From the NCBI GenBank assembly GCA_963675515.1, contig OY776328.1:930001-962000 (forward strand): 32,000 nt of DNA, given 5' to 3'. This document shows positions 1-31,060 of the stretch, one piece after another. How positions within the stretch are numbered: position 1 is the first letter of the stretch; each line of letters starts with the position of its first letter. The notes beneath the pieces are model-generated. The model did no database searches and had not been told where the DNA came from. It saw only the letters and a list, made by a program, of their open reading frames with translations. This DNA comes from Coprobacillaceae bacterium (GTDB taxonomy: Bacteria; Bacillota_I; Bacilli_A; Erysipelotrichales; Coprobacillaceae). Position numbers and translations under genes: made by a program.

Positions 1-507
1 GAATATTCCGCAATCCTGATGCAACGCACACTTTTAAGCGAACGAATCAATGGCGAACCGCTGGTCTTGCACTCCGATAACGGTGGTCCGATGAAGGCAG
101 CTACATTTCTGGGGATGCTCGAGAATCTTGGTGTGCAAAGCTCATTTTCTAGACCGCGGGTAAGCAACGATAATCCATATTCTGAATCGTTGTTTAAGAC
201 ATTTAAATATATGCCAAAATACCCCACAAGCGGTTTTGAATCACTCACACACGCTAGAAGCTGGGTCAATGAATTTGTACAATGGTACAACGAAATTCAC
301 TTACACAGCGGAATCAAATACGTGACACCCGCCAGTCGCCATCGAGGGGAAGATGCTGCGATACTGCAAAAAAGGAAAGAAGTTTATGCTGAAGCTAAAA
401 TGAAAAACCCTGAACGATGGAGTGGATCAGCCAGAGACTGGTCCTGGATTGAAGCAGTTGCCCTAAATCCGACAAAAGAAAGTGAATTATTGATCAACGA
501 AGTTTAA
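1..507 (+). CDS. rve-type (IS3/IS481-like) DDE transposase, C-terminal part; 5' end off-window
   Basis: Frame +1 is open from base 1 (GAA TAT TCC GCA ATC CTG precede the ATG at 19) to TAA 505-507. HSDNGGPMKA...SRPRVSNDNPYSESLFKTFKY...WYNEIHLHSGIKYVTP is the integrase-core region plus C-terminal tail typical of rve transposases. The right IS end must lie in 508-610 but I could not define it. Confidence 0.85.
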   Translation, partial: EYSAILMQRTLLSERINGEPLVLHSDNGGPMKAATFLGMLENLGVQSSFSRPRVSNDNPYSESLFKTFKYMPKYPTSGFESLTHARSWVNEFVQWYNEIHLHSGIKYVTPASRHRGEDAAILQKRKEVYAEAKMKNPERWSGSARDWSWIEAVALNPTKESELLINEV

Positions 508-610
508 CAAGCGCAACTCAAGAATTTGCATAATTAATATGAAAAAAATGCGTCAACTATATTGACAAATACCGTAAATTGATAATAATCTCAGACATTA
601 AATACATGTG

Positions 611-1318
611 CTATCCTCCAAAAAATTTCAAAAACAGATTTTGTACATCTTTCATTTTTGATCTCCCTACCGGAATTGAGTCTCCGTTAGAAATTTGAAC
701 ATACTGACTTTTAAACGAAGCCACATAGTTCAAATTTACAATGTATGACCTATGTATTCTAAACATATCATGGTCAATCAACAAATCTTCAATTTTTGAA
801 ATTGGAATATTGATTTGCTTTTCTTCTTCTATCATATGAAATATGCAATTATGTTTATCTGACTCAACATACATAATGGATTTTGTATCTATCGTATAGT
901 AACCGTTTGATGCGTCTAAACGAATTAATCTGTCGATGTTTTTTTGAAGAGAATTAGCAATCTGATCTAATGTTTTATTTAATCTAGTCTGGTTGACGGG
1001 CTTTACAATATAATCCAGCGCAGACACCTCATATCCATTGATTGCAAACTGGCTGTGTGAAGTAATAAAACATATTATGATATTCTTATTGTTTTTCCTG
1101 AGCTCTTTAGCAAATTCAATACCGGAAATTTCAGGAATTTCTATATCGAGTAGTGCCACATCGCAGTCCATTGCTTCTCCAGGAATCATGTATGATACTT
1201 TATTGGTAACGGTAAATTCTACAATGTTATTTGTGTTTTTTGCCCAATTGTCGATATATCCAATTAAAATGTCCCGGTCTATTTTAGAATCTTCAGCGAT
1301 GAAAAAACTAATGTTCAT
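611..1318 (-). CDS. LytTR-family two-component response regulator (REC + LytTR DNA-binding domain), AgrA/ComE-like
   Basis: Track ORF is 611..1447. I trimmed it to the ATG at 1318 (MNISFFIAEDS...), which is preceded by GAGGGG plus an 8-nt spacer. Receiver residues are intact: E9-D10, D in LLDIEIP, T in FITSH, K in YIVKP. The C-terminal half (FRIHRSYIVNLNYV...) is the LytTR signature. No histidine kinase gene is adjacent. Confidence 0.9.
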   Translation of the reverse strand: MNISFFIAEDSKIDRDILIGYIDNWAKNTNNIVEFTVTNKVSYMIPGEAMDCDVALLDIEIPEISGIEFAKELRKNNKNIIICFITSHSQFAINGYEVSALDYIVKPVNQTRLNKTLDQIANSLQKNIDRLIRLDASNGYYTIDTKSIMYVESDKHNCIFHMIEEEKQINIPISKIEDLLIDHDMFRIHRSYIVNLNYVASFKSQYVQISNGDSIPVGRSKMKDVQNLFLKFFGG

Positions 1319-1736
1319 GTAATTATCCCCTCTCTCATTTTGTTTCAATTCTACATGATTGTAACATATATTTTGCAGTTTGTATAATTGTTCCGAACAT
1401 AAATCCGTCAATATAAAGGATACAGGAGAGTATTTTTGTATAAACATAATACATTACTTAATTAATCATCAAATACAGGTGAGCACGGTATTGGATTATT
1501 GTCGATTTTGAAAAATCACCAAATGTCGCGCATTTTGGATGTAGTAATATTTCTTCGTTACTGACTATGAACTCCAAGATGTATCTGTTGGCTAATTAAG
1601 AAACATTATTTTTTTGTTCAATTATTTTCTTTGGTGTTGTTGTTGGTGCAAAAATTTTGCTTTTCATGCTCAATAGTGGAATCTAAAGAAATTTGATGTT
1701 TAAAATTAATTATACTAAATGAGAGGAGATAATCGA

Positions 1737-1856
1737 ATGGAATCAAAAAAAGTTGTGAAATTTTTGATAAAAATATCACAGGCTGCTAGCGACATAACTT
1801 GCTGGGGTGCATTTTTTCAACCTGATGCGCCAAAACGAAAATTTATTTCAAAATAA
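1737..1856 (+). CDS. agrD: AgrD-like cyclic (thiolactone) autoinducer-peptide precursor, 39 aa; below the ORF-track size cutoff
   Basis: ATG 1737 to TAA 1854-1856 encodes MESKKVVKFLIKISQAASDITCWGAFFQPDAPKRKFISK. SD GAGAGGAG lies at 1721-1728, 8 nt upstream. An amphipathic basic leader is followed by C-x4-F-Q-P-D-x-P-K, collinear with clostridial AgrD (CLWFT-HQPEEPK as I recall it). It is divergent from the LytTR regulator. Confidence 0.6.
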   Translation: MESKKVVKFLIKISQAASDITCWGAFFQPDAPKRKFISK

Positions 1857-1878
1857 GTGGGATCTATAAATGATTATT

Positions 1879-2025
1879 TGAATGACCATATTACACAGGC
1901 TGCAATTCTATGGGGTTGCGAAAATACGGTAACTGATATGAAATGACTAATTTGTTGGATTATTAAGCGGCTAAATTTAGAAATTTCACAACCAAAATCC
2001 TTGACTTGAGATATGTGGTCATTCA
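1879..2025 (+). mobile_element. MITE-like ~147-bp element, copy A
   Basis: Begins TGAATGACCATAT (1879-1891) and ends ATGTGGTCATTCA (2013-2025); the arms are complementary at 12/13. It is flanked by the direct repeat ATAAATGATTA (1866-1876 and 2025-2035). Its left ~25 bp and right ~50 bp are shared with copy B. It ends 27 nt before the ATG at 2053. Confidence 0.55.
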
Positions 2026-2052
2026 TAAATGATTAAAAGAAAGAGGTAAATT

Positions 2053-3096
2053 ATGAGTTTTAGAAGAGCAACATGTACAGGTATGGCATTATTATTAGTC
2101 GGTACGCTTATGACATCGAAAATAATTGATTACAGAAGTCGAGATTTAAATAGGCAATTAGATGGATATTATTTGTCAGATAAATCCGCAAATATTTTGT
2201 CAAATGCCTTACTTACTGAAAATGAAGTAACAAATACAGATGATTATTATGTGAAGCACGATCAATTAATACTGGACGAGCTTGATTTAGAAGTTAAAGA
2301 TAATATGCTAATTCGCACAAAAAAATCAGATTCTTTAAATGCAACATCTCAATTAAAATCGCTAAATTCTTCGATTAATAAAAACTCAGGTTTTGAAAAA
2401 AGGTTGGTAAAAATTATTTCTGACGAACAACAAAAAAATCGAAATATTGCGGCAATTGGAGTTTCTACAATATTTTTTGAAAATAGTACGGACACTGAAG
2501 TTAAAGATTTAGAGCCATTAAAATATACTGATTTTGAAAATTTTGTCGTGAATGAACGTGGTAATAATGTGTTCGATAAGTCGTTTGATGCAAATGATTT
2601 ATTGATTCAAACAGCTGGGACTCCTACTGAATATGGAAGCTTAACACTTTCAATTGTTGTTTCAATCGATAATTGGAATACAGATTTAGCATTTGCGACC
2701 TCATATTCTGATTGGAACCCATCATTGACTGAGGAGTTGTTTGGGTCGGACAAAATCAAACCGGATCCAGAAAATACTGATTATGTGACCCTCACGAATC
2801 CATCTTGTTATTATATGTATTCGGAAGCTCTTTCGGGTACATGCACTGACAAGTTTAGAGAAATGAAAACTTACAGTTCAGTTATTTATGGTTTTGATGA
2901 ACATAATGGACGAACTACGTTGTCTACGGCAGGAGAGTTATCGTCTACTCCGTCGGGCGTTAGAGAGTGGACAACAACATATTTACATACATGGGAGACA
3001 ATAGCACCTTCATTTAGCATTAGTAGCACTGGAGTTTCTATTTCTGGAACACCAAGTGACAAATCATGGCAACTAACAAGTTACATCCGTTATTAG
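2053..3096 (+). CDS. hypothetical secreted or membrane-anchored protein, 347 aa, no family recognised
   Basis: ATG is preceded by AAGAGG (2041-2046). N-terminal hydrophobic signal/anchor is MALLLVGTLMTS. An N/S/K-rich linker follows, then a C-terminal S/T/W/Y-rich, beta-strand-like region ending SYIRY. It is a long uninterrupted ORF in AT-rich DNA. Confidence 0.75.
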   Translation: MSFRRATCTGMALLLVGTLMTSKIIDYRSRDLNRQLDGYYLSDKSANILSNALLTENEVTNTDDYYVKHDQLILDELDLEVKDNMLIRTKKSDSLNATSQLKSLNSSINKNSGFEKRLVKIISDEQQKNRNIAAIGVSTIFFENSTDTEVKDLEPLKYTDFENFVVNERGNNVFDKSFDANDLLIQTAGTPTEYGSLTLSIVVSIDNWNTDLAFATSYSDWNPSLTEELFGSDKIKPDPENTDYVTLTNPSCYYMYSEALSGTCTDKFREMKTYSSVIYGFDEHNGRTTLSTAGELSSTPSGVREWTTTYLHTWETIAPSFSISSTGVSISGTPSDKSWQLTSYIRY

Positions 3097-3213
3097 CGAA
3101 TCTCAATTGTACTTTAAACGACTGATAATTTTATGATATAATCGGGGGGCATGTAATGTCTATATTTTCATTGTACAAATTGACTATGAAAATTGAAATG
3201 ACTACCCTAATCT

Positions 3214-3360
3214 TGAATGACCATATGCCACAGGAGCATGTCTTTTGGCTTGTGAAAGGATAGTGTTTTAACTAGTATGTAGAAATTTGGTACGTTTTTG
3301 AGTGACAAAATTTCTAAATTTCACAACTGAAAATTTCAACCTGAGCCATGTGGTCATTCA
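3214..3360 (+). mobile_element. MITE-like ~147-bp element, copy B
   Basis: Has the same terminal inverted repeats as copy A: TGAATGACCATAT (3214-3226) and ATGTGGTCATTCA (3348-3360). It is flanked by the direct repeat ACCCTAATCT (3204-3213 and 3363-3372). A paralogous unoccupied site lies at 4693-4760. It ends 66 nt before the ATG at 3427. Confidence 0.55.
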
Positions 3361-3426
3361 AAACCCTAATCTAAAAATGCTAAAATATGGAGGAAAAAGA
3401 CTATCAAGAATATTATATGGATTTTA

Positions 3427-3882
3427 ATGATATTAATATTTTCCGGATGCTCATTAAATGGTATAGGCACTAATCCCGAAAAAGCAATGTCAGATATAAT
3501 TGCAGAAAAATATGGGGAAGCAAATATATTATACCAAAACATTTGTAATGAATACGTTTCCGGAATATTTGAAAAAGGTGATGACGTAACCTTGGTTATC
3601 TTAGAAAAAGCAGGGGATAAATATGAGTTTTTTGGGTCTTCCAGCTACGATAAGAATAAGGCAAGTTACGGAATGTATAATTTTGTCAATGAAGATAACT
3701 TACTGGTTGTTTTTGCAGAAAATACCAACTTCAAATATGAGAGTTTGACTATAAATTATTTTAATAAAACGGATTCTAATGAAACGCTTGAGATAAAAGA
3801 CATTGTTGAGACTGATCAATATATATGCAACATGTATCTATTACCTTCGTGTTATCAATACAAAAATCTGCAATTATATTAA
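3427..3882 (+). CDS. putative lipoprotein, 151 aa from the ATG; true start may be further upstream
   Basis: Lipobox LIFSGC follows immediately after the ATG. The frame is open back to 3370 and encodes a full signal peptide (RKKTIKNIIWILMILIFSGC). A strong SD GGAGG lies at 3389-3393, but no canonical start codon occurs between it and 3427. Confidence 0.7.
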   Translation: MILIFSGCSLNGIGTNPEKAMSDIIAEKYGEANILYQNICNEYVSGIFEKGDDVTLVILEKAGDKYEFFGSSSYDKNKASYGMYNFVNEDNLLVVFAENTNFKYESLTINYFNKTDSNETLEIKDIVETDQYICNMYLLPSCYQYKNLQLY

Positions 3883-3920
3883 GTATTACTACTCAATCAA
3901 TCTTAGTTCCCGGGTGACTT

Positions 3921-4196
3921 TTATAACCACACATCAGGATTTTGGTATTCTGACCGGGATTCAATGCCGAATGCTTTGTAGCAGTCATTCGCCTTCTCCA
4001 AAGCTTCCTGTGTGATTACGGCATTATCATATACTTTACATTTTTGGTTTCGCAGGTTCAGGAACAATGAGTGAGGATTAATTTTAGTCTCCTTCAACTT
4101 GTCTTGAACCATTTTACAAAACTCAGTTGCGATGAATATCAACAACAGGTGGCCTCTAAATGTATCCCCGTTTTGCACTCGAAACAGTAATAGCAC
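3921..4196 (-). pseudogene. C-terminal fragment of an IS4/IS1634-like DDE transposase
   Basis: RVQNGDTFRGHLLLIFIATEF...ITQEALEKANDCYKAFGIE resembles the C-terminal tail of IS1634/IS4-type transposases (R.H......GH.f..FiAL... then ...aFGI). Only about 90 codons are open, the apparent start is a GTG artefact and no catalytic core is present. Confidence 0.55.
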
Positions 4197-4276
4197 GGCA
4201 TAGTTCCTATATGATACATCTTAATGTGTTACACTTGTTTCGTTAAAGAGTATATATAAGTGATTGGAGGAGTGTT

Positions 4277-4498
4277 ATGAATCTTATGCAAGCAGTGGTA
4301 TTTATTGGGGGATTCACTATATGGATTTCGTCAATAATATTTATTACGAGTCTATTGTCGGCGATTAAATTGATACACGAAGGTAGGCCCCATGGAACTG
4401 TAACATTTGTGTGCGCTACTAGTTTTTTATTGACGATAGCACCTATCATGATTGGTATAGTATTAGCCACTGTAGGTAACGTGTTAAATTTCCGGTAG
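4277..4498 (+). CDS. small two-TM membrane protein, 73 aa, unknown function
   Basis: GGAGG at 4266-4270 lies 6 nt before the ATG. There are two hydrophobic helices (VVFIGGFTIWISSIIFITSLL and FLLTIAPIMIGIVLATV). The overlapping 104-aa minus-strand ORF has no SD. Confidence 0.6.
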   Translation: MNLMQAVVFIGGFTIWISSIIFITSLLSAIKLIHEGRPHGTVTFVCATSFLLTIAPIMIGIVLATVGNVLNFR

Positions 4499-4730
4499 TT
4501 ACAGTTTAATAAAAAATTAACCAAATTAATAATGAGGTCGAAGTTTTTTGTTGGCAATAGTAAATGGCAAAATTTAACTCAAAAGTGCCATGTTCTACGC
4601 AAATGAAAATACCTTTATATGTATAATATGGGGCTAAACATTGTACCGATATATATTGCTGCTGTGTATAGTTTTGAATGATGGACCGCGTTAATTGAAA
4701 CGACTACTCTGATCTAAAAATGTTAAAATT

Positions 4731-4781
4731 TTGAGGAAAGAGATTATCAAGAAAATTATTGGTATAAATGCAAAACATTAA
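4731..4781 (+). pseudogene. truncated paralogue of the lipoprotein gene 5' end
   Basis: TTG AGG AAA GAG ATT ATC AAG AAA ATT ATT... (LRKEIIKKIIGINAKH, then stop) aligns at DNA level with 3388-3420 (TGG AGG AAA AAG ACT ATC AAG AAT ATT ATA), upstream of and in frame with 3427..3882. Confidence 0.4.
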
Positions 4782-4904
4782 ACTTTTATACCATGACAGA
4801 CATTGAAAATTGTATGAGTTATGCATAAATAAGCCTTTTAGATTTTATGCAGACGGGGTTGGGATTAAACTTGAAATTAACGTATTAATTTGAGGCGAAC
4901 TATA

Positions 4905-5177
4905 ATGATTTTATTATTTAAATACAAAAGGCTCTATTCAACGATTTATATAAATGACTTTATTAAGATCACCGATACCCTGATGAAAAACCAAATAGAT
5001 TTTACCCACCGAGTCAAGAATTTGGGATGCGATAGATTATTTGAATCGAATAGGAGATCAAAAGGGACAACAAGTTTGGGCTCTGATTCAATCAAAGAAT
5101 ATATTGTGTATGTGAATAAATCGGAATATGGAAAAGCGTGTAATAGTTTTGGGTTATCAGACAAGTTCCGGTGGTAG
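4905..5177 (+). CDS. hypothetical small protein, 90 aa
   Basis: The track ORF starts at TTG 4890. The ATG at 4905 has GAGG 9 nt upstream. The sequence has an alpha/beta-looking pattern but I recognise no family. Its stop TAG (5175-5177) lies inside the IS66 target duplication, so the ORF is not disrupted. Confidence 0.4.
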   Translation: MILLFKYKRLYSTIYINDFIKITDTLMKNQIDFTHRVKNLGCDRLFESNRRSKGTTSLGSDSIKEYIVYVNKSEYGKACNSFGLSDKFRW

Positions 5178-5245
5178 TATTGTAAGCGTCAAATAGAGCG
5201 GTGGAAGAATATTCTGATGCAAGGAAAAAGGAATCCGCGGACAAT

Positions 5246-7051
5246 TTATTTCTGTCTTTGGATTCCTTTTTTAAGTTCTTTGATTTCTTTGGCCGTCAGT
5301 TGGCGCAAATATTTGGGCAGGTCCTTGTTGTATGGTAATAGCTTTCTGATTTCGACCTCATCACTTGGATCGATGCTTGGTAATCTTTCCAATACGTACT
5401 CCATGTACATGTATGCTGACAACCCATTCTCTTCGGCACTAAGTAGTAACGAGTAAATGATTGCCGCAGCTTGGGCTCCTTTGGGGCTGGTATAGAACTT
5501 GCAGCGATTTCTAGATACCACAAATGGTCTGATAACTCTCTCGGCGCTTGAATTGTCGAACGGAACTTTTGGATTATTGAATACTTCACGGAATTCCTTC
5601 TCATGGTTCAATTCGTAATTAATTGCCTTGATCAACGTAGGTTTCATATTCACTTCAGGTAGCAAGATTATTTCTTTAAGGTACGCTAAAAAATTGTCAT
5701 AAATAGGCTTTACGATATCATTTCGGCCCTTATGAACATACTCAAAATATTTAACTGGATTTTTGCAGTGTTTTGACTTAGCGGTCGTTTCAATCTTGTT
5801 TTTTGCTTCGAATATTTTCTGGTAATAACGATAGCACGTATATTCGTAACTTTTGCTTTTATCACTACCTTTTGGCAATACCTCAAGGGCTTTACGGAAA
5901 TAACGGAAGGCGTGGACGTGGCAAAAACAGTTGGTGACATTATCAAGGGCCTCGTAGGCCCCATATGCATCGGTTACCAGGTAGTTCGAATAATCTCCGA
6001 TGAAATCTTCGACAACACGTTTTGAGCGAGTGGGATCATAACGATATAAGATGATCGGCACATCATATTGGCAGGTTCTTACCACCCACATGTAGGATTT
6101 ACTTTGAGCCGTCTTGCCCTCTTCATTTAAAATTTGGGTCGTGGTTTCGTCGCAGTGTATCACATTCATGGCCAACAGATCCTTGCGCATGCATTCGAAC
6201 AGTAAACCCAGATGTACCGAGGCTTTAATCATCCAATTGGCCATATTTTGTCTAGGGATGACAACATCATTCTCCAGGAATCGTTTTTCCTGAGCGGCCA
6301 GGGGCAAACCCTTCAAATATTTCATATCCATTATATTCGCAATCAGCGAAGGTGAAGCAATGCTCCCCTTGATGACAGGTTGTCTGCCCGGAACTCTTTT
6401 ATAAGATGACTTGCCGTCCAGGTTATGTTCCTGGCAAGCAACACATTCGTATACTGGAGTACGGTATATATTCATTTCCACTTTGGCTGGGGTATAGACG
6501 AGTTCCTTTCTTTCATCGTACTTTTTTATTTTCATGGTTGTACCACAAAGGTCGCAGACATCGAAATTTTCTGGTGTCGGCTCGTCAATGATATTGGTTT
6601 TTAGGTGATCGTAGTTAATGTGCTTTTCTTTAGGGATTCTTACTTTTCTTTTGTACCCTTTGATTTCCTTGACTTCTATTTCTTCAGTCTCAGTTACCAC
6701 ACCAAAATCGATACCAATCAGACTGAAAAGGTCGGGACCTTGATTGTATTCTTTTATATTATTTCTCTGAGAGGAATATCGGGCGTTTTCTAATATCTTG
6801 ATATATTCGTTTTTCTGTTGCAGTTCCAATTTGCGTTCGTTGATTTCACTAATCAGCTTCTTATTTTCGGCGATCAAAGTCTTTTCTTTAGCAGTGAATT
6901 TCTTTTCTTTGGCAGCCAACAACTCATTTTCTTTGATAAGTTTAACTTTTGAAATACGGTCGGATTCGATTTTCTCACAAAGCTCTTTTTCTCTATTTTT
7001 GAAAGCAGCAATCAGCTCTTCTTTAGACATATTTTCCATCAGCTTTATCAT
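5246..7051 (-). CDS. tnpC: IS66-family transposase TnpC
   Basis: Has an N-terminal coiled coil, a CxxC...CxxC zinc-finger region (CDLCGT...YECVACQ) and an IS66 DDE core (VIHCDETTTQIL...YMWV...). The start was moved to the ATG at 7051 (MIKLMENMSKEE), which follows GAGGTGGA; the track start at 7087 has no SD. Confidence 0.92.
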   Translation of the reverse strand: MIKLMENMSKEELIAAFKNREKELCEKIESDRISKVKLIKENELLAAKEKKFTAKEKTLIAENKKLISEINERKLELQQKNEYIKILENARYSSQRNNIKEYNQGPDLFSLIGIDFGVVTETEEIEVKEIKGYKRKVRIPKEKHINYDHLKTNIIDEPTPENFDVCDLCGTTMKIKKYDERKELVYTPAKVEMNIYRTPVYECVACQEHNLDGKSSYKRVPGRQPVIKGSIASPSLIANIMDMKYLKGLPLAAQEKRFLENDVVIPRQNMANWMIKASVHLGLLFECMRKDLLAMNVIHCDETTTQILNEEGKTAQSKSYMWVVRTCQYDVPIILYRYDPTRSKRVVEDFIGDYSNYLVTDAYGAYEALDNVTNCFCHVHAFRYFRKALEVLPKGSDKSKSYEYTCYRYYQKIFEAKNKIETTAKSKHCKNPVKYFEYVHKGRNDIVKPIYDNFLAYLKEIILLPEVNMKPTLIKAINYELNHEKEFREVFNNPKVPFDNSSAERVIRPFVVSRNRCKFYTSPKGAQAAAIIYSLLLSAEENGLSAYMYMEYVLERLPSIDPSDEVEIRKLLPYNKDLPKYLRQLTAKEIKELKKGIQRQK

Positions 7052-7196
7052 CGAAATCCACCTCGTTTCTCTTTGAGAGTATACCATAAAAATGGCTGTA
7101 AGTCTTGATTTTACGGCAATTTCTTAAAGATGTGAATAACTTAAAAAGATATAAAAGAAACCCACAAATTATTGTGAATTACTCCTATATCTTTCG

Positions 7197-7556
7197 CTAA
7201 ATTATTACTGAAATATCCTTGAACGCCCGCTTTTGTTCAATCTCCAGACCATCAAGCAGCCAGTTTAGCTGCCGCAAGTCAACGGTCATCGAGCTGATCT
7301 CATCTTGGGCCTTGGGCCAATAGAATCGATCAGTGTTCAACAGCTTCTTGGAGTGGATGACAAAACCGTTTTTATCAAACTCCAACATCTTGATTGTCCG
7401 CTTGTTCCGGCTACAAAATATGTAGAGATTATTGGCGGTTGGATCCAGGTAAAGATTGTGGCTCACCATGGCGCTCAATCCCGCATAACTTTTTCTTAAA
7501 TCCGTTGCTCCGGGTACCAGATAGATATTGTCGAAGTCCTCAAATTTAATCTTCAT
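7197..7556 (-). CDS. tnpB: IS66-family accessory protein TnpB
   Basis: YLVPGATDLRKSYAGLSAMV...LYIFCSRNKRTIKMLEFDKNGFVIHSKKL...RFYWP matches the IS66 Orf2 pattern. It overlaps the tnpA stop by 11 nt, the usual coupled arrangement. Confidence 0.9.
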   Translation of the reverse strand: MKIKFEDFDNIYLVPGATDLRKSYAGLSAMVSHNLYLDPTANNLYIFCSRNKRTIKMLEFDKNGFVIHSKKLLNTDRFYWPKAQDEISSMTVDLRQLNWLLDGLEIEQKRAFKDISVII

Positions 7557-7878
7557 CGAGCAACCTGATAAGCTTGGCCAAAGTCACCAAATCCGTTGAA
7601 TCATCAACTTTGATGCAGGCTTTACCGATGACGATTTCAAAACCATCATTCCGGATAGTTGGAACGCAGTCGACTAAGCTAAGTTTTACCAGCGGGCTGT
7701 TGACTTCGTTGGCACATTCGCTTACCCTGGATCTTTTCCGATACGGCTTCGAATATTTGTGGTAGCAAAAGGCATTAAAAGAAACGTCATTGGCTAAGCA
7801 CCATTTCTTGATTGGTAAATCACTATTGGTGGCATCTTCGAAAAACTGATGCCACTGGTCCTGAGAATATTGATTCAT
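7546..7878 (-). CDS. tnpA: IS66-family accessory protein TnpA (Orf1)
   Basis: This is the first gene of the IS66 operon and encodes a small HTH-like protein. The start was set to the ATG at 7878 (MNQYSQDQW), which is preceded by GGAGGTG. Confidence 0.8.
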   Translation of the reverse strand: MNQYSQDQWHQFFEDATNSDLPIKKWCLANDVSFNAFCYHKYSKPYRKRSRVSECANEVNSPLVKLSLVDCVPTIRNDGFEIVIGKACIKVDDSTDLVTLAKLIRLLDED

Positions 7879-8291
7879 ATCACACCTCCAAGTTGATGTG
7901 ATCATTGTATCAACAAAAAGAAAGGAATCCTACCACCGCTCTATTTGGCGCGTACGTAGTATTTATAACCAATAACCACGGCCGTGCCAAGTGCGCGGTC
8001 TTTTACGTATGATGGCGATATCGATTGAAACCTCCTTTCGGTTTAGCTTCTTCGCAATTAGAAGTATGTTTAAAAGCATTGTTTGCCTGATTCGAGCATA
8101 ATTGTTTTTGCTCGACTGATATTAAGGAGTGTAATTTTGGAAAGGAGCGTTTTTCAGTTTTACAGCCAGCAATGATATTTTCAACTTATGAAAAGCGAGA
8201 GAAATCCACTCCAAAGTATTGACCGGGTGTTACTACCGGATGTTAGAGTAATATCATATTCTAGACAAGAAGTCTAACAGGAGGAATTATC

Positions 8292-10012: not shown

Positions 10013-10279
10013 GGACAACTCATTAGACAGATTTTTCCTTGGCGTACCGGAGAACTTATTCTTGCAACTGATATCCGGAGCGACATAAGCAAAATATGAT
10101 TTCAAACTCTCCAACATGTCATAGAGAAGTTAAATACCCCTCCACCTGTTTGGGTCAACAGGAGCTTGACGGAAGTTCTCGATTTTCACCATTAATACCT
10201 GTTTTTGAATCTTGGGGACTTGAATAATTTCAGCCGAATGGATATGATGGTTGTAAGTATCCAGAAAAGAGGGACTAGC

Positions 10280-11161
10280 ATGTTAATAAGTGAAAAACTT
10301 CAGGAATTCGATAATCTGTCGACTTCGGAGAAGGCAGTGGCCAACAAGATTCTTGAGCTTGAAGAAGCAATCAAGGACATGACCGTTCGTGATCTTGCCG
10401 AGGCTTCATTTACGGCGACATCGGCGGTATCAAGGATGGCCAAGAAGCTGGGCTTTGAGAGTTACCTGGAATTCAAGGAAGCATTCATCAAGGAACTTAG
10501 CTATCTCAACAGTCATTTCAGCGACATCGATGCCAATATTCCTTTCACCAAGGATGACAACCTGGCGCGGGTGGCCGGGTCGATGGCCTCGATGTATGAA
10601 CAGACAAGCAAGGATACGCTGGAGCTGGTCGACTATTCCCAGCTGATCCGGGCAATTGACCTGATCGAAAAGTCGGATACGATTCATGTCCTTTGTTATG
10701 GGGTAGGCCAGAATCTAGCCTGGGTATTTGCCGATCGGATGATGCGCATCGGCAAAAAAGTTGTTGTGACCGACAATATCCATACCCAGTTCTATTCCGC
10801 TTATCACAGCGACAAGAGCGACTGTTTCATCGTCATATCCTATACCGGAACGACCCGCAAGATCAGGACTTACGTCGACTACATCAACAAAAACAAGGCC
10901 AAATCGATCCTGATCACCTCAATCGGGGAGAACGACCTGTCCTTGAAGACTGACGTCGTTTTGCGGATGTCGACCCGGGAGAAACTCTACAGCAATATCG
11001 CCAATTTTTCTTCGGCGATTTCGATCATGATGATTTTCGATCTGCTCTATTCGGGTTATTTCCACCGTGACTACGATGGCAACTTCGCCATGAAAAAGCA
11101 GATGGCCCGTGATTATGAGGACTGCCGCACCAGCATATCCGCCTTGATGGATGAGGAATAA
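10280..11161 (+). CDS. MurR/RpiR-family transcriptional regulator (HTH_6 + SIS domain)
   Basis: The track start is TTG 10205. The ATG at 10280 (MLISEKLQEF) follows AGAGGGA. The protein has an N-terminal RpiR HTH (SEKAVANKIL...VRDLAEASFTATSAVSRMAKKLGF) and a C-terminal SIS fold (IHVLCYGVGQN...IVISYTGTT). Confidence 0.9.
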   Translation: MLISEKLQEFDNLSTSEKAVANKILELEEAIKDMTVRDLAEASFTATSAVSRMAKKLGFESYLEFKEAFIKELSYLNSHFSDIDANIPFTKDDNLARVAGSMASMYEQTSKDTLELVDYSQLIRAIDLIEKSDTIHVLCYGVGQNLAWVFADRMMRIGKKVVVTDNIHTQFYSAYHSDKSDCFIVISYTGTTRKIRTYVDYINKNKAKSILITSIGENDLSLKTDVVLRMSTREKLYSNIANFSSAISIMMIFDLLYSGYFHRDYDGNFAMKKQMARDYEDCRTSISALMDEE

Positions 11162-25960: not shown

Positions 25961-27508
25961 ATGAAAAAATTGCCGGTTATAAAGAAAGTTGATGGAATTT
26001 GGAATTTGTTTGTCGATGGCGAGCCATTCACGGCTTTGTCGGGTGAAGTGCATAACTCGAGCGCCTCAAATTTGTCATACATGGAAGAAAAGGTATGGCC
26101 GTATCTACGTGGTATGAATCTCAATTCGCTGGTGGTCCCGGTCTATTGGGAAAATATTGAACCCGTGGAGAATGAATTCAATTTCGAAATCGTGGATGGT
26201 CTGTTGGAACAGGCTAGGGCAGAAGGGATGAAACTAATCATTCTATGGTTTGGTCTGTGGAAGAATGGGATTTCGAGTTATGTCCCAGAATGGGTGAAGC
26301 TGGAAACGGAAAAGTATTTTAGAGTCCGTGATTGCCAGGGCAAGGCGATGGATGTCGTTTCGCCTTTATGCCCCGATGCAATCGCTGCCGACAAAAAAGC
26401 ATTCACAACGCTAATGAGACACCTGAAGGAAGTTGATTTGGAATCACAGACAGTCATCATGATGCAAGTTGAAAATGAGGTCGGGCTATTGGGCAGTGAC
26501 CGCGATTATTCGCAATTTGCGAATAAAGAATTCAATGACAAGATTCCCGATAGTTTGGTAACCCTTTATGATGTTGAAGGAACCTGGGAAGAGGCATTCA
26601 GGGAAAACGCCGCTGAAATCTTTATGGAATACCATTATGCGAAAGCTCTAGAAGAGATTGCCAGTGCCGGGAAGGAAGAGTACGGCTTGGAGATGTATGT
26701 GAATGCCTGGATCGAGAAGTTCCCTTGGGTCCCGGGCGGGTATCCAAGCGGGGGGCCGATTGCCCGTTTCATCAGGTTATGGCACGAAATCGCCCCGACA
26801 ATTTCGGTATTGGCACCGGATATTTACGCATCGGATTTCGCAGGAATATGCGATGAATACACAATCGAGGACAACCCTTTGATGATCCCGGAAGTGAGAA
26901 GGGATGCGCTGAATTCCTCGAATGTCTTTTATGCGATCGGGAAATATAACGCTTTGTGTTATTCGCCTTTTGGCATTGAGGATTTCCAGACTCCCAAAGA
27001 GTTGTTGACCGGAACAAGCAATATCGATGTGTTGAAAACATTGAATATCGATGTTAGCGCTTGGGACTGTGAAGATACGGCACGCTATCTGTCAAAGTCG
27101 TATGAGATATTGGCAAGTGCAATGCCCCTGATTCGAAAATGCCGGGAAGCGGGGAAATTGCATCCCTTCATCCGCAGAAACGAACATGAAAGAGGCGAAG
27201 TTGTAAGGCTGAAAGATTATGACATCAGAGTCAATTTTCAACCGAACAAAGTCGGTGTGCCAAAATCGGCAGGGCTGATCCTGGAAGTGGCCTATAATGA
27301 ATTCTATATAATGGGAACCTCGATAAAATACCTGGTTATGCCAAAAAGAGGCGAAAATGTGAATGTGGGAATTCTCAATTTGGAAGGAGGGGAATTCGTG
27401 GCTGGCGAGTGGAAAGCTTCAAGATGCTTAAACGGCGATGAACGCTATCATACCAATCTCTATGACATGCCGGGCATCCATAGAATCAAAATCTATAAAT
27501 ATATCTGA
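25961..27508 (+). CDS. GH35/GH42-clan beta-galactosidase-like glycosidase with DUF5597-type C-terminal domain
   Basis: AAGGAG at 25946-25951 lies 9 nt before the ATG at 25961 (MKKLPVI); the track ATG at 25952 abuts the SD. GEVHNSSAS...VPVYWENIEPVENEFNF...LIILWFGLWKNG...MQVENEVG is the TIM-barrel pattern of this group. Confidence 0.8.
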   Translation: MKKLPVIKKVDGIWNLFVDGEPFTALSGEVHNSSASNLSYMEEKVWPYLRGMNLNSLVVPVYWENIEPVENEFNFEIVDGLLEQARAEGMKLIILWFGLWKNGISSYVPEWVKLETEKYFRVRDCQGKAMDVVSPLCPDAIAADKKAFTTLMRHLKEVDLESQTVIMMQVENEVGLLGSDRDYSQFANKEFNDKIPDSLVTLYDVEGTWEEAFRENAAEIFMEYHYAKALEEIASAGKEEYGLEMYVNAWIEKFPWVPGGYPSGGPIARFIRLWHEIAPTISVLAPDIYASDFAGICDEYTIEDNPLMIPEVRRDALNSSNVFYAIGKYNALCYSPFGIEDFQTPKELLTGTSNIDVLKTLNIDVSAWDCEDTARYLSKSYEILASAMPLIRKCREAGKLHPFIRRNEHERGEVVRLKDYDIRVNFQPNKVGVPKSAGLILEVAYNEFYIMGTSIKYLVMPKRGENVNVGILNLEGGEFVAGEWKASRCLNGDERYHTNLYDMPGIHRIKIYKYI

Positions 27509-27545
27509 TAAGAATTTCCAAAGGAATGCAACAAGGAGGGCTGTT

Positions 27546-28831
27546 ATGGCTATTACGGTAAGCGGCACCGGTTTTATCAAAGACAACAAGAGATTTTTCT
27601 ATCTGGCGGACACATGTTGGAGCGCCTTTACAAACATCCATGAGGAAGATTGGCTCTACTACCTGCAACATAGAAAGAAGCAGGGCTACAATGTCCTGCA
27701 GATAAACATTCTGCCCCAGTGGGATGCCAGCGGGACCAGTCTCAACCACGTGCCTTATAAGCTTGATGAAAATGGGAATTATGATTTCAAGAAAATCAAC
27801 AAGGATTATTTTGAGCACGCCCGGGCGATGTGTCTGAGCGCCAAGGAACTTGGATTCGAGCTGGCCCTGGTGGTCCTGTGGTGCAATTACGTGCCGGAAA
27901 CCTGGGCGAATGGCATCACCCAAAAGAACACGATGCCCTTTGAGGATCTTGATCTGTACTTGAACGTCGTCCATGACACTTTTTCTGATCTGGATCCAAT
28001 ATATGTCATCAGCGGTGATACCGATCTAGATCATGAAATAACGAGATCCTATTATCTCAAGGCCGGCAAGATCCTGAGGCAGCGGACACCTACGTGTCTG
28101 CAAACGCTCCATGTAAGGGGCGGCTGATGGAGATCCAGCCGGAATTCATCGACAATATGGATTTTTACATGTTCCAATCCGGTCACAATGCCCAATTTCA
28201 AAATCGCTGCATGCCCTACCGGATCCCGGAGTATTTCAAGACAAATTACCCGGCCAAGCCTCTGATCAATTCGGAACCTTGTTATGAACAGATGGGCTGC
28301 TCCGGCAAAATGTATGGCCGTTTCCATCAATTTGACATCAGAAGGGCGGCCTGGCAAAGTATCCTATCAGGAGCGGATGCCGGAGTGACATACGGTACGG
28401 CTGGAATTTACAGCTGGCATACTTTTGGAAACAAGTTTGAGACTGAATTCGCCGAAGGATTCGATACTCCAAATCCGTGGCAGTTGGCACTGCATTATCC
28501 CGGAGCATGGGATTACAGCGATATCAAACACATCTTGGGGGAGTTTGTAAGTAAGCCGCTTGTGCCCCGTCAAGAAATTATGCTAAATGATACTGAAGAA
28601 ATCCGGCTGGCAATGACCGAGGATGAAAATACCATTCTCATCTATGCCCCAGAGAATACTTCGATAAGAATTGAATACGTACTCCATCAGGATACCTACG
28701 AGCTGACCATAATCGACCTGGAAACCCGACACCGTGAAGTTGGAGTGATCTCATGTGATGGAAAGGTCAGCACAATAGGGATCCACAGCTTCAATCACGA
28801 TGTCCTGTGCATTATAGAGAGGAACACGTAA
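27546..28831 (+). pseudogene. DUF4038 (GH140 apiosidase-like) glycosidase gene split by a 1-nt frameshift
   Basis: The ATG at 27546 follows AAGGAGGG. The N-terminal part (FFYLADTCWSAF...QINILPQWD) runs in frame 3 to TGA 28125-28127. The continuation (LMEIQPEFIDNMDFYMFQSGHN...) is in frame 2. Adding one G to the G4 run at 28117-28120 gives HVRGRLMEIQ and one 428-codon ORF. Confidence 0.8.
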
Positions 28832-29677: not shown

Positions 29678-31060
29678 ATGAATAACAGTTACGAATTATA
29701 CGTCGGTATCGACATCTCTAAGGGCAAGGCCGATGCTGCAATTATTTCTGTCTATCGTGACAGAAATATCAAGCCTAAATTATTGAGAAAAAAGATTCAA
29801 TTCAAGTTTTTGAAATCCGAACTGGATAATTTCCTAACCACAGTCAGAAAATATGCCGATTCAGATTGCACCAACGTGACTTATGCAATGGAAGTCACTG
29901 GTGTTTATTCCGACAATATCTTCGAGTTCATCCACTCATCTTTAAACGACAACGAGAATGTTTATTTTCTCAACACTCAGTTTGTCAACAAGTGGCGTGA
30001 ATCCCGCGATATCGCTAAATCTGATCCATTGGATGCCCAGACAATCGCTTCAATAATCGCATATGAATATGACGTTAAATATGTTCACAAGAACAATATA
30101 AATAACGAAAAAGGATATGCAGACTTGAAAGCAGTCGTTCATCGCCATGGCCAGGTAAAGAAAACTTATTCTCAAGAAATTAACCGCCTCATTGCCCAAT
30201 GCGAACGTTATTTCCCTGAACTTCAATATGTCTTCGAACCTAAGTCAGCAACATTTCTTGCTATCTTATCTTCATATCCTACGACACATGATATCATAAA
30301 TACTTCTAAAATAGAAGTACAAGATATCGCCAAAAAAGCGTCGAAAAACAGGACAAAATCCGATAAGATAGATGAATTGTTTGACCTTTGTAATGACTCG
30401 CTTGCTCCAACGGAAGTATCTGATTCGATCAGGTCCATAATCCGCGCCCAAGTTGCCATCATCACCGAAATCAAAAGCCAGATAAAGACTCTTGAGAAGA
30501 TGATCAAGGAACTTGGTTCAAACCATAAAATGTTTGAAAAGCTTAAGACACTGACTGGATGTGGCGATGTGACAGCGGCGACCGTAATTGCCGAAACATA
30601 CGATATCAAGCTTTTTAAAAGCGCTGATAAGTACGTTTCCTACATGGGTCTCGCCCCTAGAAACAAACGCTCCGGCAGTTCTGTTGAAATCATGGGCAAG
30701 ATTTCAAAGAAAGGTTCAAGATATCTCCGTCACGCAATATACATGATTGCGGAATTCGCCAGAAGGCACAATCCGGTCCTCAAGGCCTATTTCCACAAGA
30801 TCAAGAATAGGAACAAGAAGCGCCATAAACTGGCCGTCGTGGCAGTCGCCAACAAGGTTGCCCGCTACGTATATTCAATGATGAAGAAGCAAAGCCAATT
30901 CGTAATCGATCATGATCATCTCATGCGATTACCGGAAGAAACCCGAAACACGTTCTTCCAAAACATAACAACACAGATACCCCTGAAAACCAGAAGGCAG
31001 ATATACCGTTATAGCGATGAAAACGGAGAAGTCCACAAGTTCATCTATACAACGACATAA
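29678..31060 (+). CDS. IS110-family DEDD transposase/recombinase, 460 aa
   Basis: It has an N-terminal DEDD_Tnp_IS110 pattern (YVGIDISKGK...AMEVTGVYS...DPLDAQ) and a C-terminal Transposase_20 pattern (LTGCGDVTAATVIAE...GLAPRNKRSGSS...GKISKKGSRYLR). Confidence 0.93.
   Translation: MNNSYELYVGIDISKGKADAAIISVYRDRNIKPKLLRKKIQFKFLKSELDNFLTTVRKYADSDCTNVTYAMEVTGVYSDNIFEFIHSSLNDNENVYFLNTQFVNKWRESRDIAKSDPLDAQTIASIIAYEYDVKYVHKNNINNEKGYADLKAVVHRHGQVKKTYSQEINRLIAQCERYFPELQYVFEPKSATFLAILSSYPTTHDIINTSKIEVQDIAKKASKNRTKSDKIDELFDLCNDSLAPTEVSDSIRSIIRAQVAIITEIKSQIKTLEKMIKELGSNHKMFEKLKTLTGCGDVTAATVIAETYDIKLFKSADKYVSYMGLAPRNKRSGSSVEIMGKISKKGSRYLRHAIYMIAEFARRHNPVLKAYFHKIKNRNKKRHKLAVVAVANKVARYVYSMMKKQSQFVIDHDHLMRLPEETRNTFFQNITTQIPLKTRRQIYRYSDENGEVHKFIYTTT

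Follow-up and report, generated by a model that had tools for sequence, protein, structure and literature searches.

A short open reading frame (ORF) near the left end of the window, by which we mean the whole 32,000-nucleotide stretch of DNA analyzed here, resembles genes for AgrD autoinducing-peptide precursors and is divergent from a gene for a LytTR response regulator. Do these two genes form a pair that works alone, or do they belong to a larger agr system? Our analyses make it quite probable that they are one end of a complete agr-type locus of an uncultured Erysipelotrichaceae bacterium, in which agrC was recently broken by an IS3-family element. The features of the locus are listed in Table 1.

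Table 1 Features of the interrupted agr-type locus, in window coordinates
Feature	Position	Strand	Basis
IS3-family element, right-hand part, cut by the window's left edge	1..574	+	Pfam, tblastn, terminus match
agrC-type kinase 5' stub, 11 codons (MYLMSEIIINL)	575..607	-	Alignment A1 with L033
agrA-like response regulator, 235 aa, receiver + LytTR, intact	611..1318	-	Pfam, orthologues, structure alignment
Divergent control region, agrA-agrD	1319..1736	.	Four-way alignment A3
146-bp stretch peculiar to the window's intergenic region	1453..1598	.	Alignments A2, A3
Conserved 32-bp block TGTTGTTGGTGCAAAAATTTTGCTTTTCATGC 5' of agrD	1638..1669	+	Four-locus alignment A3
Ribosome-binding site GAGAGGAG	1721..1728	+	8 nt upstream of the agrD start codon
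agrD, 39-aa autoinducing-peptide precursor	1737..1856	+	TIGR04223, orthologues in L033/L034/L036, codon analysis
347-aa protein, no recognised family, N-terminal hydrophobic segment	2053..3096	+	Directly downstream of agrD
151-aa protein, no recognised family, second gene of the cassette after agrD	3427..3882	+	L036/L034 comparison

The peptide gene, its regulator and the region between them

AgrD precursors have been defined by an amphipathic leader, a ring region initiated by Cys or Ser, and a charged tail with a conserved proline (PMC12312760, PMC6534674). The 39-aa product shows these three parts when read from its sequence: an amphipathic leader (MESKKVVKFLIKISQAAS), a core (DITCWGAF) whose five-residue ring region starts at Cys, and a charged, proline-bearing tail (FQPDAPKRKFISK). 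The predicted ring is a thiolactone between C22 and F26, CWGAF. Its position and the tail proline agree with published AIPs, for which the rings [CLWFT], [CVGIW] and A[CFMFV] and a conserved tail proline have been described (PMC12312760 Table 1; PMC6534674).

The NCBIfam model TIGR04223 scored the peptide at 26.9 bits (cutoff 19, E 3.9e-6) and the alleles of three related loci, L033, L034 and L036, at 32.2, 31.5 and 41.7 bits. The core pattern ITCWGAF-x-QPxxPK is kept in all three of these loci, and codon analysis of the four alleles found ITCWGAF, Q28, P29, P32 and K33 invariant, with synonymous changes at C22, A25, Q28, P32 and K33. The ribosome-binding site is GAGAGGAG or GGGAGGGG in all four. 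By these sequence features, the ORF is a genuine gene for an AgrD-type signalling peptide. We give practically no credence to the alternative of a chance ORF, or of a TIGR04223 match caused by coincidence in a short motif: all four alleles exceed the cutoff, the ribosome-binding site and the placement opposite agrA-agrC-agrB are conserved, and the invariant residues carry silent substitutions, whereas the observations in favor of chance are a silent Pfam AgrD model (PF05931) and a phmmer search against 1.84 billion representative proteins. That search returned P0001, one further peptide allele, P0083, with the ring CWGVF, and mostly RCC1-like repeat proteins. We judged the latter a coincidence of the motif ITCWG...Q.DAP, as no RCC1 Pfam domain was seen in the peptide even at E<=10. 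No Pfam family of any kind matched it at that threshold; because PF05931 was built on staphylococcal-type sequences, its miss rules out the narrow family only.

For this gene, the sequence-only reading held up well. Its translation of the ORF and the spacing of the ribosome-binding site were exact, its assignment to the AgrD family with a predicted CWGAF ring is supported by TIGR04223 and the invariant core, and the Cys and QPxxPK positions are conserved in orthologous loci. The profile-HMM check that it proposed gave a mixed result, since the cyclic-lactone-autoinducer model was passed but the Pfam AgrD model was silent. The exact 39-aa product is also present in the protein collection as a called gene (P0037); the query of the word-indexed search was the 45-aa upstream-extended agrD ORF. 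A JGI metagenome scan with the degenerate pattern ITCWGAF(F/Y)QP found nothing.

The divergent gene has GAGGGG 8 nt 5' of its ATG and encodes a receiver (Response_reg, 58 bits) and a LytTR domain (65 bits). The acidic pair E9/D10 and residues D58, T86 and K106 align with those of solved receiver domains, in line with the earlier claim of an AgrA-like LytTR regulator with intact phospho-acceptor residues, and ComE (4cbv) matches the protein along its full length. A receiver with a phospho-acceptor Asp joined to a LytTR DNA-binding domain makes the regulator AgrA-type; as it scores 46.7 against the cutoff of 400 of the NCBIfam AgrA equivalog, we call it AgrA-like and not an AgrA equivalog. It is 97%, 95% and 82% identical in amino acids to its counterparts in L033, L034 and L036, respectively. 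A scan of species-representative genomes gave relatives at 25-36% identity only, and no AgrB or AgrD was detectable near those with HMMs built from this lineage, so they are uninformative.

Between the two genes, sigma-70-like sites for the minus-strand operon were found at 1411-1384 and 1386-1358, and a search of the same region for a canonical sigma-70 site for agrD gave none. The 146-bp stretch is missing from L033, L034 and L036, and by blastn the window and all loci contain no second copy of it. The 32-bp block is invariant in 27 of its 32 columns across the four loci, its flanks are divergent, and TT(G/C)(G/A)TGC is repeated about 20 bp apart. The LytTR regulator may bind this block; a direct-repeat search for LytTR boxes gave nothing convincing apart from it. 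Rfam searches revealed no RNAIII-like or other RNA family within the window.

An IS3-family element inserted in agrC

The C-terminal 168 codons of an IS3 transposase are open from base 1 to a stop at 505-507. They match rve_3, rve_2 and rve in Pfam and are 62% identical by tblastn to plasmid genes annotated 'IS3 family transposase'. The element has its terminus at 574, and its end (...TTGACAAATACCG) matches that (...TTGACAATTACCG) of a related element in L036 for which both ends and a TTA duplication of 3 bp are present. A DDE (rve) transposase and a defined terminus common to that complete element place the sequence in the IS3 family; the left end of the window's copy and its duplication fall beyond the window. 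What had been described as a transposase fragment is an element truncated by the left edge of the window and not a degraded gene. Megablast of positions 1-8000 against plasmids gave no match. The genome is rich in IS elements in general, with IS3, IS66 and IS110 all present within 32 kb.

Directly 3' of the regulator stop codon lies the start of a kinase gene, whose frame runs into the IS and terminates after 16 codons. The counterpart of this sequence in L033 opens a 445-aa HATPase_c_5 kinase. By blastn and alignment, the homology to L033 comprises the regulator and the first 11 kinase codons and ends at 574/575. An IS3-family element is inserted at codon 11 (TTA) of agrC. The gene is split after that codon, and all that is left of it beyond the stub is a 414-aa ORF. 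The earlier statement that the 32 kb hold no AgrB or kinase is correct for the 28 ORFs scanned (25 of at least 112 aa and three unassigned ones of 91-104 aa), but it missed the 11-codon stub; the apparent absence of both is due to the window boundary and the recent insertion. We regard the insertion as recent because agrA and agrD have no lesions. The suggestion of a decayed locus is right insofar as agrC is interrupted.

In L033 and L034, the regulator is followed by an AgrC-type HATPase_c_5 kinase and then by AgrB, all divergent from agrD. L036 has the same order, with an IS of its own inside the kinase gene and both halves in place. In the related L035, next to an IS66 element, agrB is missing and the regulator gene lacks its 5' part. 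The IS disruptions in three related genomes are independent of one another and echo the recurrent agr loss described in staphylococci.

These comparisons bear on the proposal that the peptide and regulator are a true orphan or eavesdropper pair, evolved to work without an AgrB and kinase of their own. A 32-kb window without an AgrB or kinase ORF is what such a pair would leave. However, the kinase start and 11 codons are still joined to the regulator and end at the IS terminus, an orthologous AgrB and the kinase remainder are encoded in the genome, and regulator, kinase and AgrB stand in the same order in three of three orthologous loci, one of which (L036) has an IS-split kinase itself. We consider this origin highly improbable. 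The new wiring suggested by the sequence-only reading is better described as a lesion than a design, given the kinase stub at the IS junction and the cognate parts in the genome. The apparent orphan is thereby corrected to a standard four-gene agr circuit with its sensor knocked out by a recent IS.

The kinase remainder, AgrB and a second pair on the contig

Cluster look-ups placed the window's exact proteins P0037 (AgrD), P0040 (regulator), P0043 and P0044 on a single contig of 2,881,239 bp; besides AgrD and the regulator, the proteins so placed include the 347-aa protein and an aldo-keto reductase. For each of four agr-type proteins, P0035, P0046, P0004 and P0048, the recorded contig has that same length. 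P0035 is the 414-aa kinase ORF, beginning at M32; from residue 32 of the L033 kinase onward it shares 96% identity with that protein, and it extends to the normal kinase C-terminus. P0046 is a full-length AgrB orthologue of 188 aa (Pfam AgrB, PF04647, 71.4 bits; 89% identity to L033). It keeps the His...Cys pair in YHSKTPFGC, spaced like the catalytic H77/C84 of S. aureus AgrB. The look-ups show that the window's contig still carries the agrC remainder and an undamaged agrB, contrary to the idea of an orphan module. A JGI metagenome scan with P0035 found nothing.

From the contig records and synteny, the agrC remainder and agrB probably lie just past the IS, about a kilobase left of the window. 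An IS-mediated inversion could instead have relocated them on the contig, and 574/575 would then be the endpoint of an inversion or an adjacent deletion, with the kinase remainder and agrB far away. The genome's richness in IS elements (the three types named above) is compatible with such a rearrangement, as is the related L035 with its losses beside IS66. We nevertheless think it unlikely: a related IS in L036 is simply inserted in the kinase gene, with a duplication of 3 bp and neither half displaced, P0035 reaches its normal C-terminus and P0046 is full length, and the rhamnose gene flanking agrB in L033 has a counterpart at least 90% identical (P0068) on the same contig.

By analogy with known agr systems, AgrB would cut off the tail FQPDAPKRKFISK and close the CWGAF thiolactone between the thiol of Cys22 and the carboxyl of Phe26; the product may bear an N-terminal tail such as T-, IT- or DIT-. 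The exported peptide would be sensed by AgrC, which would phosphorylate AgrA at D58, and the target of AgrA~P would be the conserved block 5' of agrD. The insertion would deprive the kinase of its start codon and initial membrane segment and separate agrC' and agrB from the agrA promoter, so the circuit is probably off or dependent on another system. agrB could still be expressed via read-through across the IS or from an outward IS promoter. A candidate hybrid promoter at 562-589 may give rise to antisense transcripts.

Another system is at hand in the second pair on the contig, the full-length kinase P0004 (445 aa, 63% identical to P0035) and the AgrB P0048 (181 aa, 67% identical to P0046). 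Of the loci available, L036 is most closely related to this second system, with 84% identity to P0004 in the C-terminal part of the kinase and 78% to P0048 in AgrB, and the AgrD core of L036 is the identical ITCWGAF. agrD and agrA might thus have stayed functional after the kinase loss, with P0048 processing the peptide and P0004 sensing CWGAF and phosphorylating the regulator. The presence of both proteins on the same contig, the core shared with L036 and the undamaged agrA and agrD would all suit this arrangement. Intact agrA and agrD are, however, predicted equally well by a recent insertion, and paralogous two-component pairs are usually insulated from cross-phosphorylation; we rate servicing in trans as rather unlikely. 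It is doubtful, too, that the agrD and agrA of the interrupted locus have been captured by the second system, which appears to share the CWGAF signal. If they had, two peptide genes and two regulators would depend on a single kinase and a single AgrB, and the outputs would be different secreted-protein cassettes. Together with the IS hits in L035 and L036, capture could then amount to recurrent IS-driven rewiring or switching of agr circuits in these Erysipelotrichaceae.

Comparison with known agr systems and the downstream cassette

On the preferred reading of a recently interrupted but once complete locus, the parts correspond to those of S. aureus agrBDCA/RNAIII: an AgrD precursor, AgrB (PF04647), a HATPase_c_5 GHKL AgrC-type kinase and a receiver + LytTR AgrA. 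Both systems have two divergent transcription units with one common control region, and a five-residue ring, predicted here, that opens at Cys. Unlike in S. aureus, agrD is the only agr gene on its strand and the other three run agrA-agrC-agrB on the opposite one, so agrB is neither next to agrD nor transcribed with it. Alongside agrD, the divergent unit holds secreted-protein genes instead of a regulatory RNA (no Rfam match), the peptide is missed by the staphylococcal Pfam model, and its tail is short (9-13 residues). The locus is most probably an ordinary agr system with an unusual gene order.

C. perfringens AgrD ([CLWFT]) and Lactobacillus plantarum LamD ([CVGIW]) are likewise short precursors of the broad TIGR04223 type, with a ring from Cys, aromatic residues and then a conserved proline in a charged tail. 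CWGAF resembles both rings in size and character but differs in sequence, and the window's AgrD is presumably collinear with the full C. perfringens precursor. The loci differ: C. perfringens possesses just agrBD and relies on VirSR for signaling, the lam genes are arranged as lamBDCA, and an agrD divergent from agrACB is absent in both. Clostridioides difficile and C. botulinum have genomes with two agr loci in orders departing from agrBDCA (PMC12312760 Table 1; PMC3754575), and in having more than one system per genome and another gene order they resemble the present case. The two C. difficile systems make different peptides, whereas L036, the one relative of the second system available here, shares the ITCWGAF core.

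Natural agr-defective mutants mostly map to agrC (PMC12312760), and in the S. aureus ST239 isolate HC1335 agrC is interrupted by IS256 (PMC5174738). Like agrC::IS256 in HC1335, the insertion described here is a natural IS inactivation of the sensor kinase gene in an otherwise intact agr locus. It differs in the IS family (IS3), the host (uncultured Erysipelotrichaceae, represented by metagenome-type assemblies only) and the position (codon 11). With agrB downstream, it is probably polar on peptide processing as well, in contrast to HC1335. We found no dedicated literature on agr in uncultured Erysipelotrichaceae. The present locus documents such a system there, with an unusual order, agrD apart from agrB, and swappable secreted-protein cassettes.

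The gene order of the lineage is agrD with a variable secreted-protein cassette, divergent from an agrA-agrC-agrB operon. The first gene of the cassette, for the 347-aa protein, is likely co-transcribed with agrD or a regulated target. The protein has no Pfam or NCBIfam match, and its AlphaFold single-sequence model was unusable (pLDDT 29.6). It is 68% identical to the product of the same-position gene in L036, and L033 and L034 carry unrelated secreted proteins of 256 and 260 aa at that position. We rejected the possibility that it is a diverged orthologue of the 256-aa protein of L033, as BLASTP found no similarity (E 1.1), pointing to different cassettes. The 151-aa protein has no Pfam match and is 64% identical to its L036 counterpart, and the DNA of its region (3427-3882) is 98% identical to the end of L034.

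The AgrD peptide, its regulator and their control region

By function and by family tests the locus is an agr system, with an AgrD (TIGR04223), an AgrB (PF04647), an AgrC-type GHKL kinase and an AgrA-like LytTR regulator. The 39-codon agrD ORF is present exactly as the sequence-only reading had described it, with GAGAGGAG 8 nt upstream. Its assignment as an AgrD-type peptide was upheld by NCBIfam TIGR04223 (26.9 bits, curated cutoff 19, E 3.9e-6), although the Pfam AgrD model did not match the 39-aa product. A word-indexed search returned one close relative, P0001, whose contig (L033) led us to the related loci L034 and L036. All four alleles pass TIGR04223, those of L033, L034 and L036 at 31.5-41.7 bits. 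ITCWGAF, Q28, P29, P32 and K33 are invariant while the leader and tail vary, and codons at the invariant residues differ among alleles (TGC/TGT, GCA/GCC, CAA/CAG, CCA/CCT, AAA/AAG). Both features singled out earlier, the Cys and QPxxPK positions, are kept in the orthologous loci. By analogy with published AIP rings ([CLWFT], [CVGIW] and A[CFMFV]) and their conserved tail proline (PMC12312760; PMC6534674), the AgrD ring is predicted to be C22-F26, CWGAF.

A phmmer search with the peptide against 1.84 billion representatives returned P0001, P0083 and many RCC1-like repeat proteins. P0083 is a fifth allele (MNSSKLVKTLVKISDISSGITCWGVFYQPKSPKKIKVSR, ring CWGVF) and might be a second agrD of the window's genome. 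We regard kinship with the RCC1-like proteins as a short-motif coincidence (via ITCWG..GQSDAP), because RCC1 Pfam models do not match the window peptide and all orthologous loci place it among agr genes. The repeat signature TITCWGSNxYGQSDAP (library proteins P0079-P0096) resembles the peptide core, so phmmer searches of the whole library bring up mostly multi-repeat proteins and can mislead a hunt for homologues of this peptide.

The divergent gene had been read as a LytTR response regulator with intact phospho-acceptor residues, and its domains and receiver residues agree. E9/D10, D58, T86 and K106 fall at conserved receiver positions in an alignment with solved response regulators, and ComE (4cbv) aligns over the full length. 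Upstream of agrD, a 32-bp block is nearly invariant in four loci while its surroundings diverge, and a site scan of the region found no canonical sigma-70 site ahead of agrD. This is compatible with an activator-dependent agrD promoter, the block being a candidate regulator site. The agrA/agrD intergenic region also contains a 146-bp stretch, flanked by AAACATAA and AAACATTA, that is missing from L033, L034 and L036; promoter-like sites lie on its agrA side and the conserved block on its agrD side. Neither the window nor the retrieved loci contain a second copy.

Features of the agr locus and its surroundings in the window, with AgrD alleles of related loci
Feature	Position	Strand	Details
agrC stub	575-607	-	first 11 kinase codons
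Sigma-70-like site	562-589	+	TTGACA-16-AATAAT, 11/12
agrA-like regulator	611-1318	-	235 aa; Pfam Response_reg 58 bits, LytTR 65 bits
146-bp stretch	1453-1598		agrA/agrD intergenic region
Conserved 32-bp block	1638-1669		upstream of agrD
agrD (window allele)	1737-1856	+	39 codons; MESKKVVKFLIKISQAASDITCWGAFFQPDAPKRKFISK
AgrD allele, L033			MESKKVVKFLIKISEAASDITCWGAFFQPDEPKKK
AgrD allele, L034			(M)ESNNIVKFLVKISEIANGITCWGAFYQPDAPKKN; TTG start
AgrD allele, L036			MESNKVVKLLVKVSEIASNITCWGAFYQPKVPKQKYY
Cassette swap 3' of agrD	1827-4210		L033 has 10091-11160
IS66 element	about 5180-7955	-	613-aa transposase, TnpB_IS66, 119-aa ORF; inserted relative to L033
Stretch missing from L033	14487-29142		about 14.6 kb
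Apiosidase-like ORF pair	27438-28831	+	229 and 245 aa, overlapping
IS110-family transposase	29678-31060		after the 14.6-kb stretch

The IS3 insertion in agrC and the remainder of the system

As had been noted from the sequence, no AgrB or histidine kinase lies within the 32 kb: none was found in a Pfam scan of 28 ORFs (25 of at least 112 aa and three unassigned ORFs of 91-104 aa close to the locus), which encode IS3, IS66 and IS110 transposases, aldo-keto reductases, sugar-utilisation genes and regulators. In L033, the stop codon of the regulator (97% identity to that of the window) is separated by 3 nt from the gene of a 445-aa HATPase_c_5 kinase, and a 188-aa AgrB begins 1 nt beyond the end of that gene; all three are divergent from agrD. 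L034 has the same layout, and the lineage order is therefore agrD divergent from agrA-agrC-agrB.

Homology between the window and L033 (95%; blastn, alignment) extends from the intergenic region across the regulator into the first 11 kinase codons (MYLMSEIIINL) and ends abruptly at 574/575. To the left, a reading frame open from window base 1 encodes the last 168 residues of a DDE transposase, which is 62% identical to annotated IS3 family transposases. L036 carries a related IS3 element, with a 3-bp TTA duplication, within a kinase gene whose two halves are both still there. The terminus of that element (...TTGACAATTACCG) is matched by the sequence that adjoins the window junction on the left (...TTGACAAATACCG), so agrC is interrupted here at codon 11 (TTA) by a genuine IS end. 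The transposase noted beside the regulator is a fragment only because the window edge cuts it. The region's best sigma-70-like match straddles this junction, with the -35 hexamer formed by the final IS bases and the -10 hexamer within the agrC stub. It faces outward from the IS, antisense to agrA, and may be a hybrid promoter created by the insertion, in a region where sigma-70-like sites are overall no more numerous than in shuffled sequence.

Exact-sequence cluster look-up placed the window's own AgrD, regulator, 347-aa protein and aldo-keto reductase (P0037, P0040, P0043 and P0044) each on one NCBI/ENA contig of 2,881,239 bp. For each protein of two kinase/AgrB pairs (P0035 with P0046, P0004 with P0048), the record likewise names one contig of 2,881,239 bp. 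P0035, a 414-aa kinase, corresponds to the L033 kinase from residue 32 through to the normal C-terminus, with 96% identity. P0046 is a full-length 188-aa AgrB (89% identity to that of L033; Pfam AgrB 71 bits) with His and Cys seven residues apart (YHSKTPFGC), which we take to be the spacing of catalytic H77/C84 in S. aureus AgrB. RhaA lies beside agrB in L033, and a counterpart at least 90% identical is on the contig of the window proteins. From this shared synteny, the L036 precedent and the clean IS terminus, we infer that the IS is immediately followed, outside the window, by the agrC remainder (agrC') and agrB. The orphan module proposed by the sequence-only reading fails on its defining point: the agrC stub ends at the IS, and a kinase remainder and an AgrB are recorded in the genome.

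Clostridia are reported to have agrBD/agrCA and reversed gene orders (PMC12312760; PMC3754575). Unlike in these, agrBDCA, lamBDCA or fsr, agrD is here unlinked from agrB and on a divergent transcript with effector-like genes. The difference is one of organisation and does not make this a new kind of system.

By analogy with characterised agr systems (PMC12312760), AgrB would cut off the AgrD tail and make the CWGAF thiolactone, a leader peptidase would free the AIP, and its sensing by AgrC would lead to phosphorylation of AgrA at D58; AgrA~P would then switch on the divergent promoters. The IS would leave the agrC start and first 11 codons detached from the remainder of the kinase gene and also cut agrC' and agrB off from the agrA promoter. 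Because of this, the window's locus has very likely lost sensing, and its processing of the peptide is probably impaired. The 1-nt spacing in L033 indicates that AgrB translation is probably coupled to that of the kinase. The insertion is recent, since agrA and agrD are undamaged and share 91-97% protein identity with those of L033.

The other pair, P0004 (445-aa kinase, 63% identical to P0035) and P0048 (181-aa AgrB, 67% identical to P0046), represents a second agr system. We consider it unlikely that this system now services the window's agrD/agrA pair, a role favoured by the identical ITCWGAF core in its nearest available relative, L036. Damage to the locus by insertion, the reading we prefer, has counterparts in related genomes, which carry independently damaged copies. 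In L036 (6957-9999) a different IS3 element lies at about kinase codon 193, and in L035 (9506-11272) the regulator is truncated by IS66, with no AgrB or AgrD within 10 kb. The damage in the window, L035 and L036 parallels that in agr-defective staphylococci, including agrC::IS256 (PMC5174738; PMC12312760).

The downstream cassette and island composition

The agr island is compositionally distinct: the agr genes and cassette (about 600-5000) have 32-33% GC vs 43-51% in adjacent metabolic genes. Homology with L033 breaks at 1827, inside the agrD tail codons. Beyond agrD the genes form a swappable cassette, which in the window and L036 encodes a 347/348-aa protein (68% identity) and a 151-aa protein (64% identity); L033 and L034 have unrelated 256- and 260-aa secreted proteins in the cassette position. 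No Pfam family was found for the cassette proteins of these four loci. At the two junctions of the IS66 element, a 6-bp overlap of L033 coordinates suggests a target duplication.

The stretch missing from L033 carries LysR, MerR, RpiR and AraC regulators, an aldo-keto reductase, GH1, PTS EIIBCA, GH43 and beta-galactosidase-like genes. Its two overlapping Apiosidase-like ORFs match the first and second halves of PF13204 and are probably one gene broken by a frameshift.
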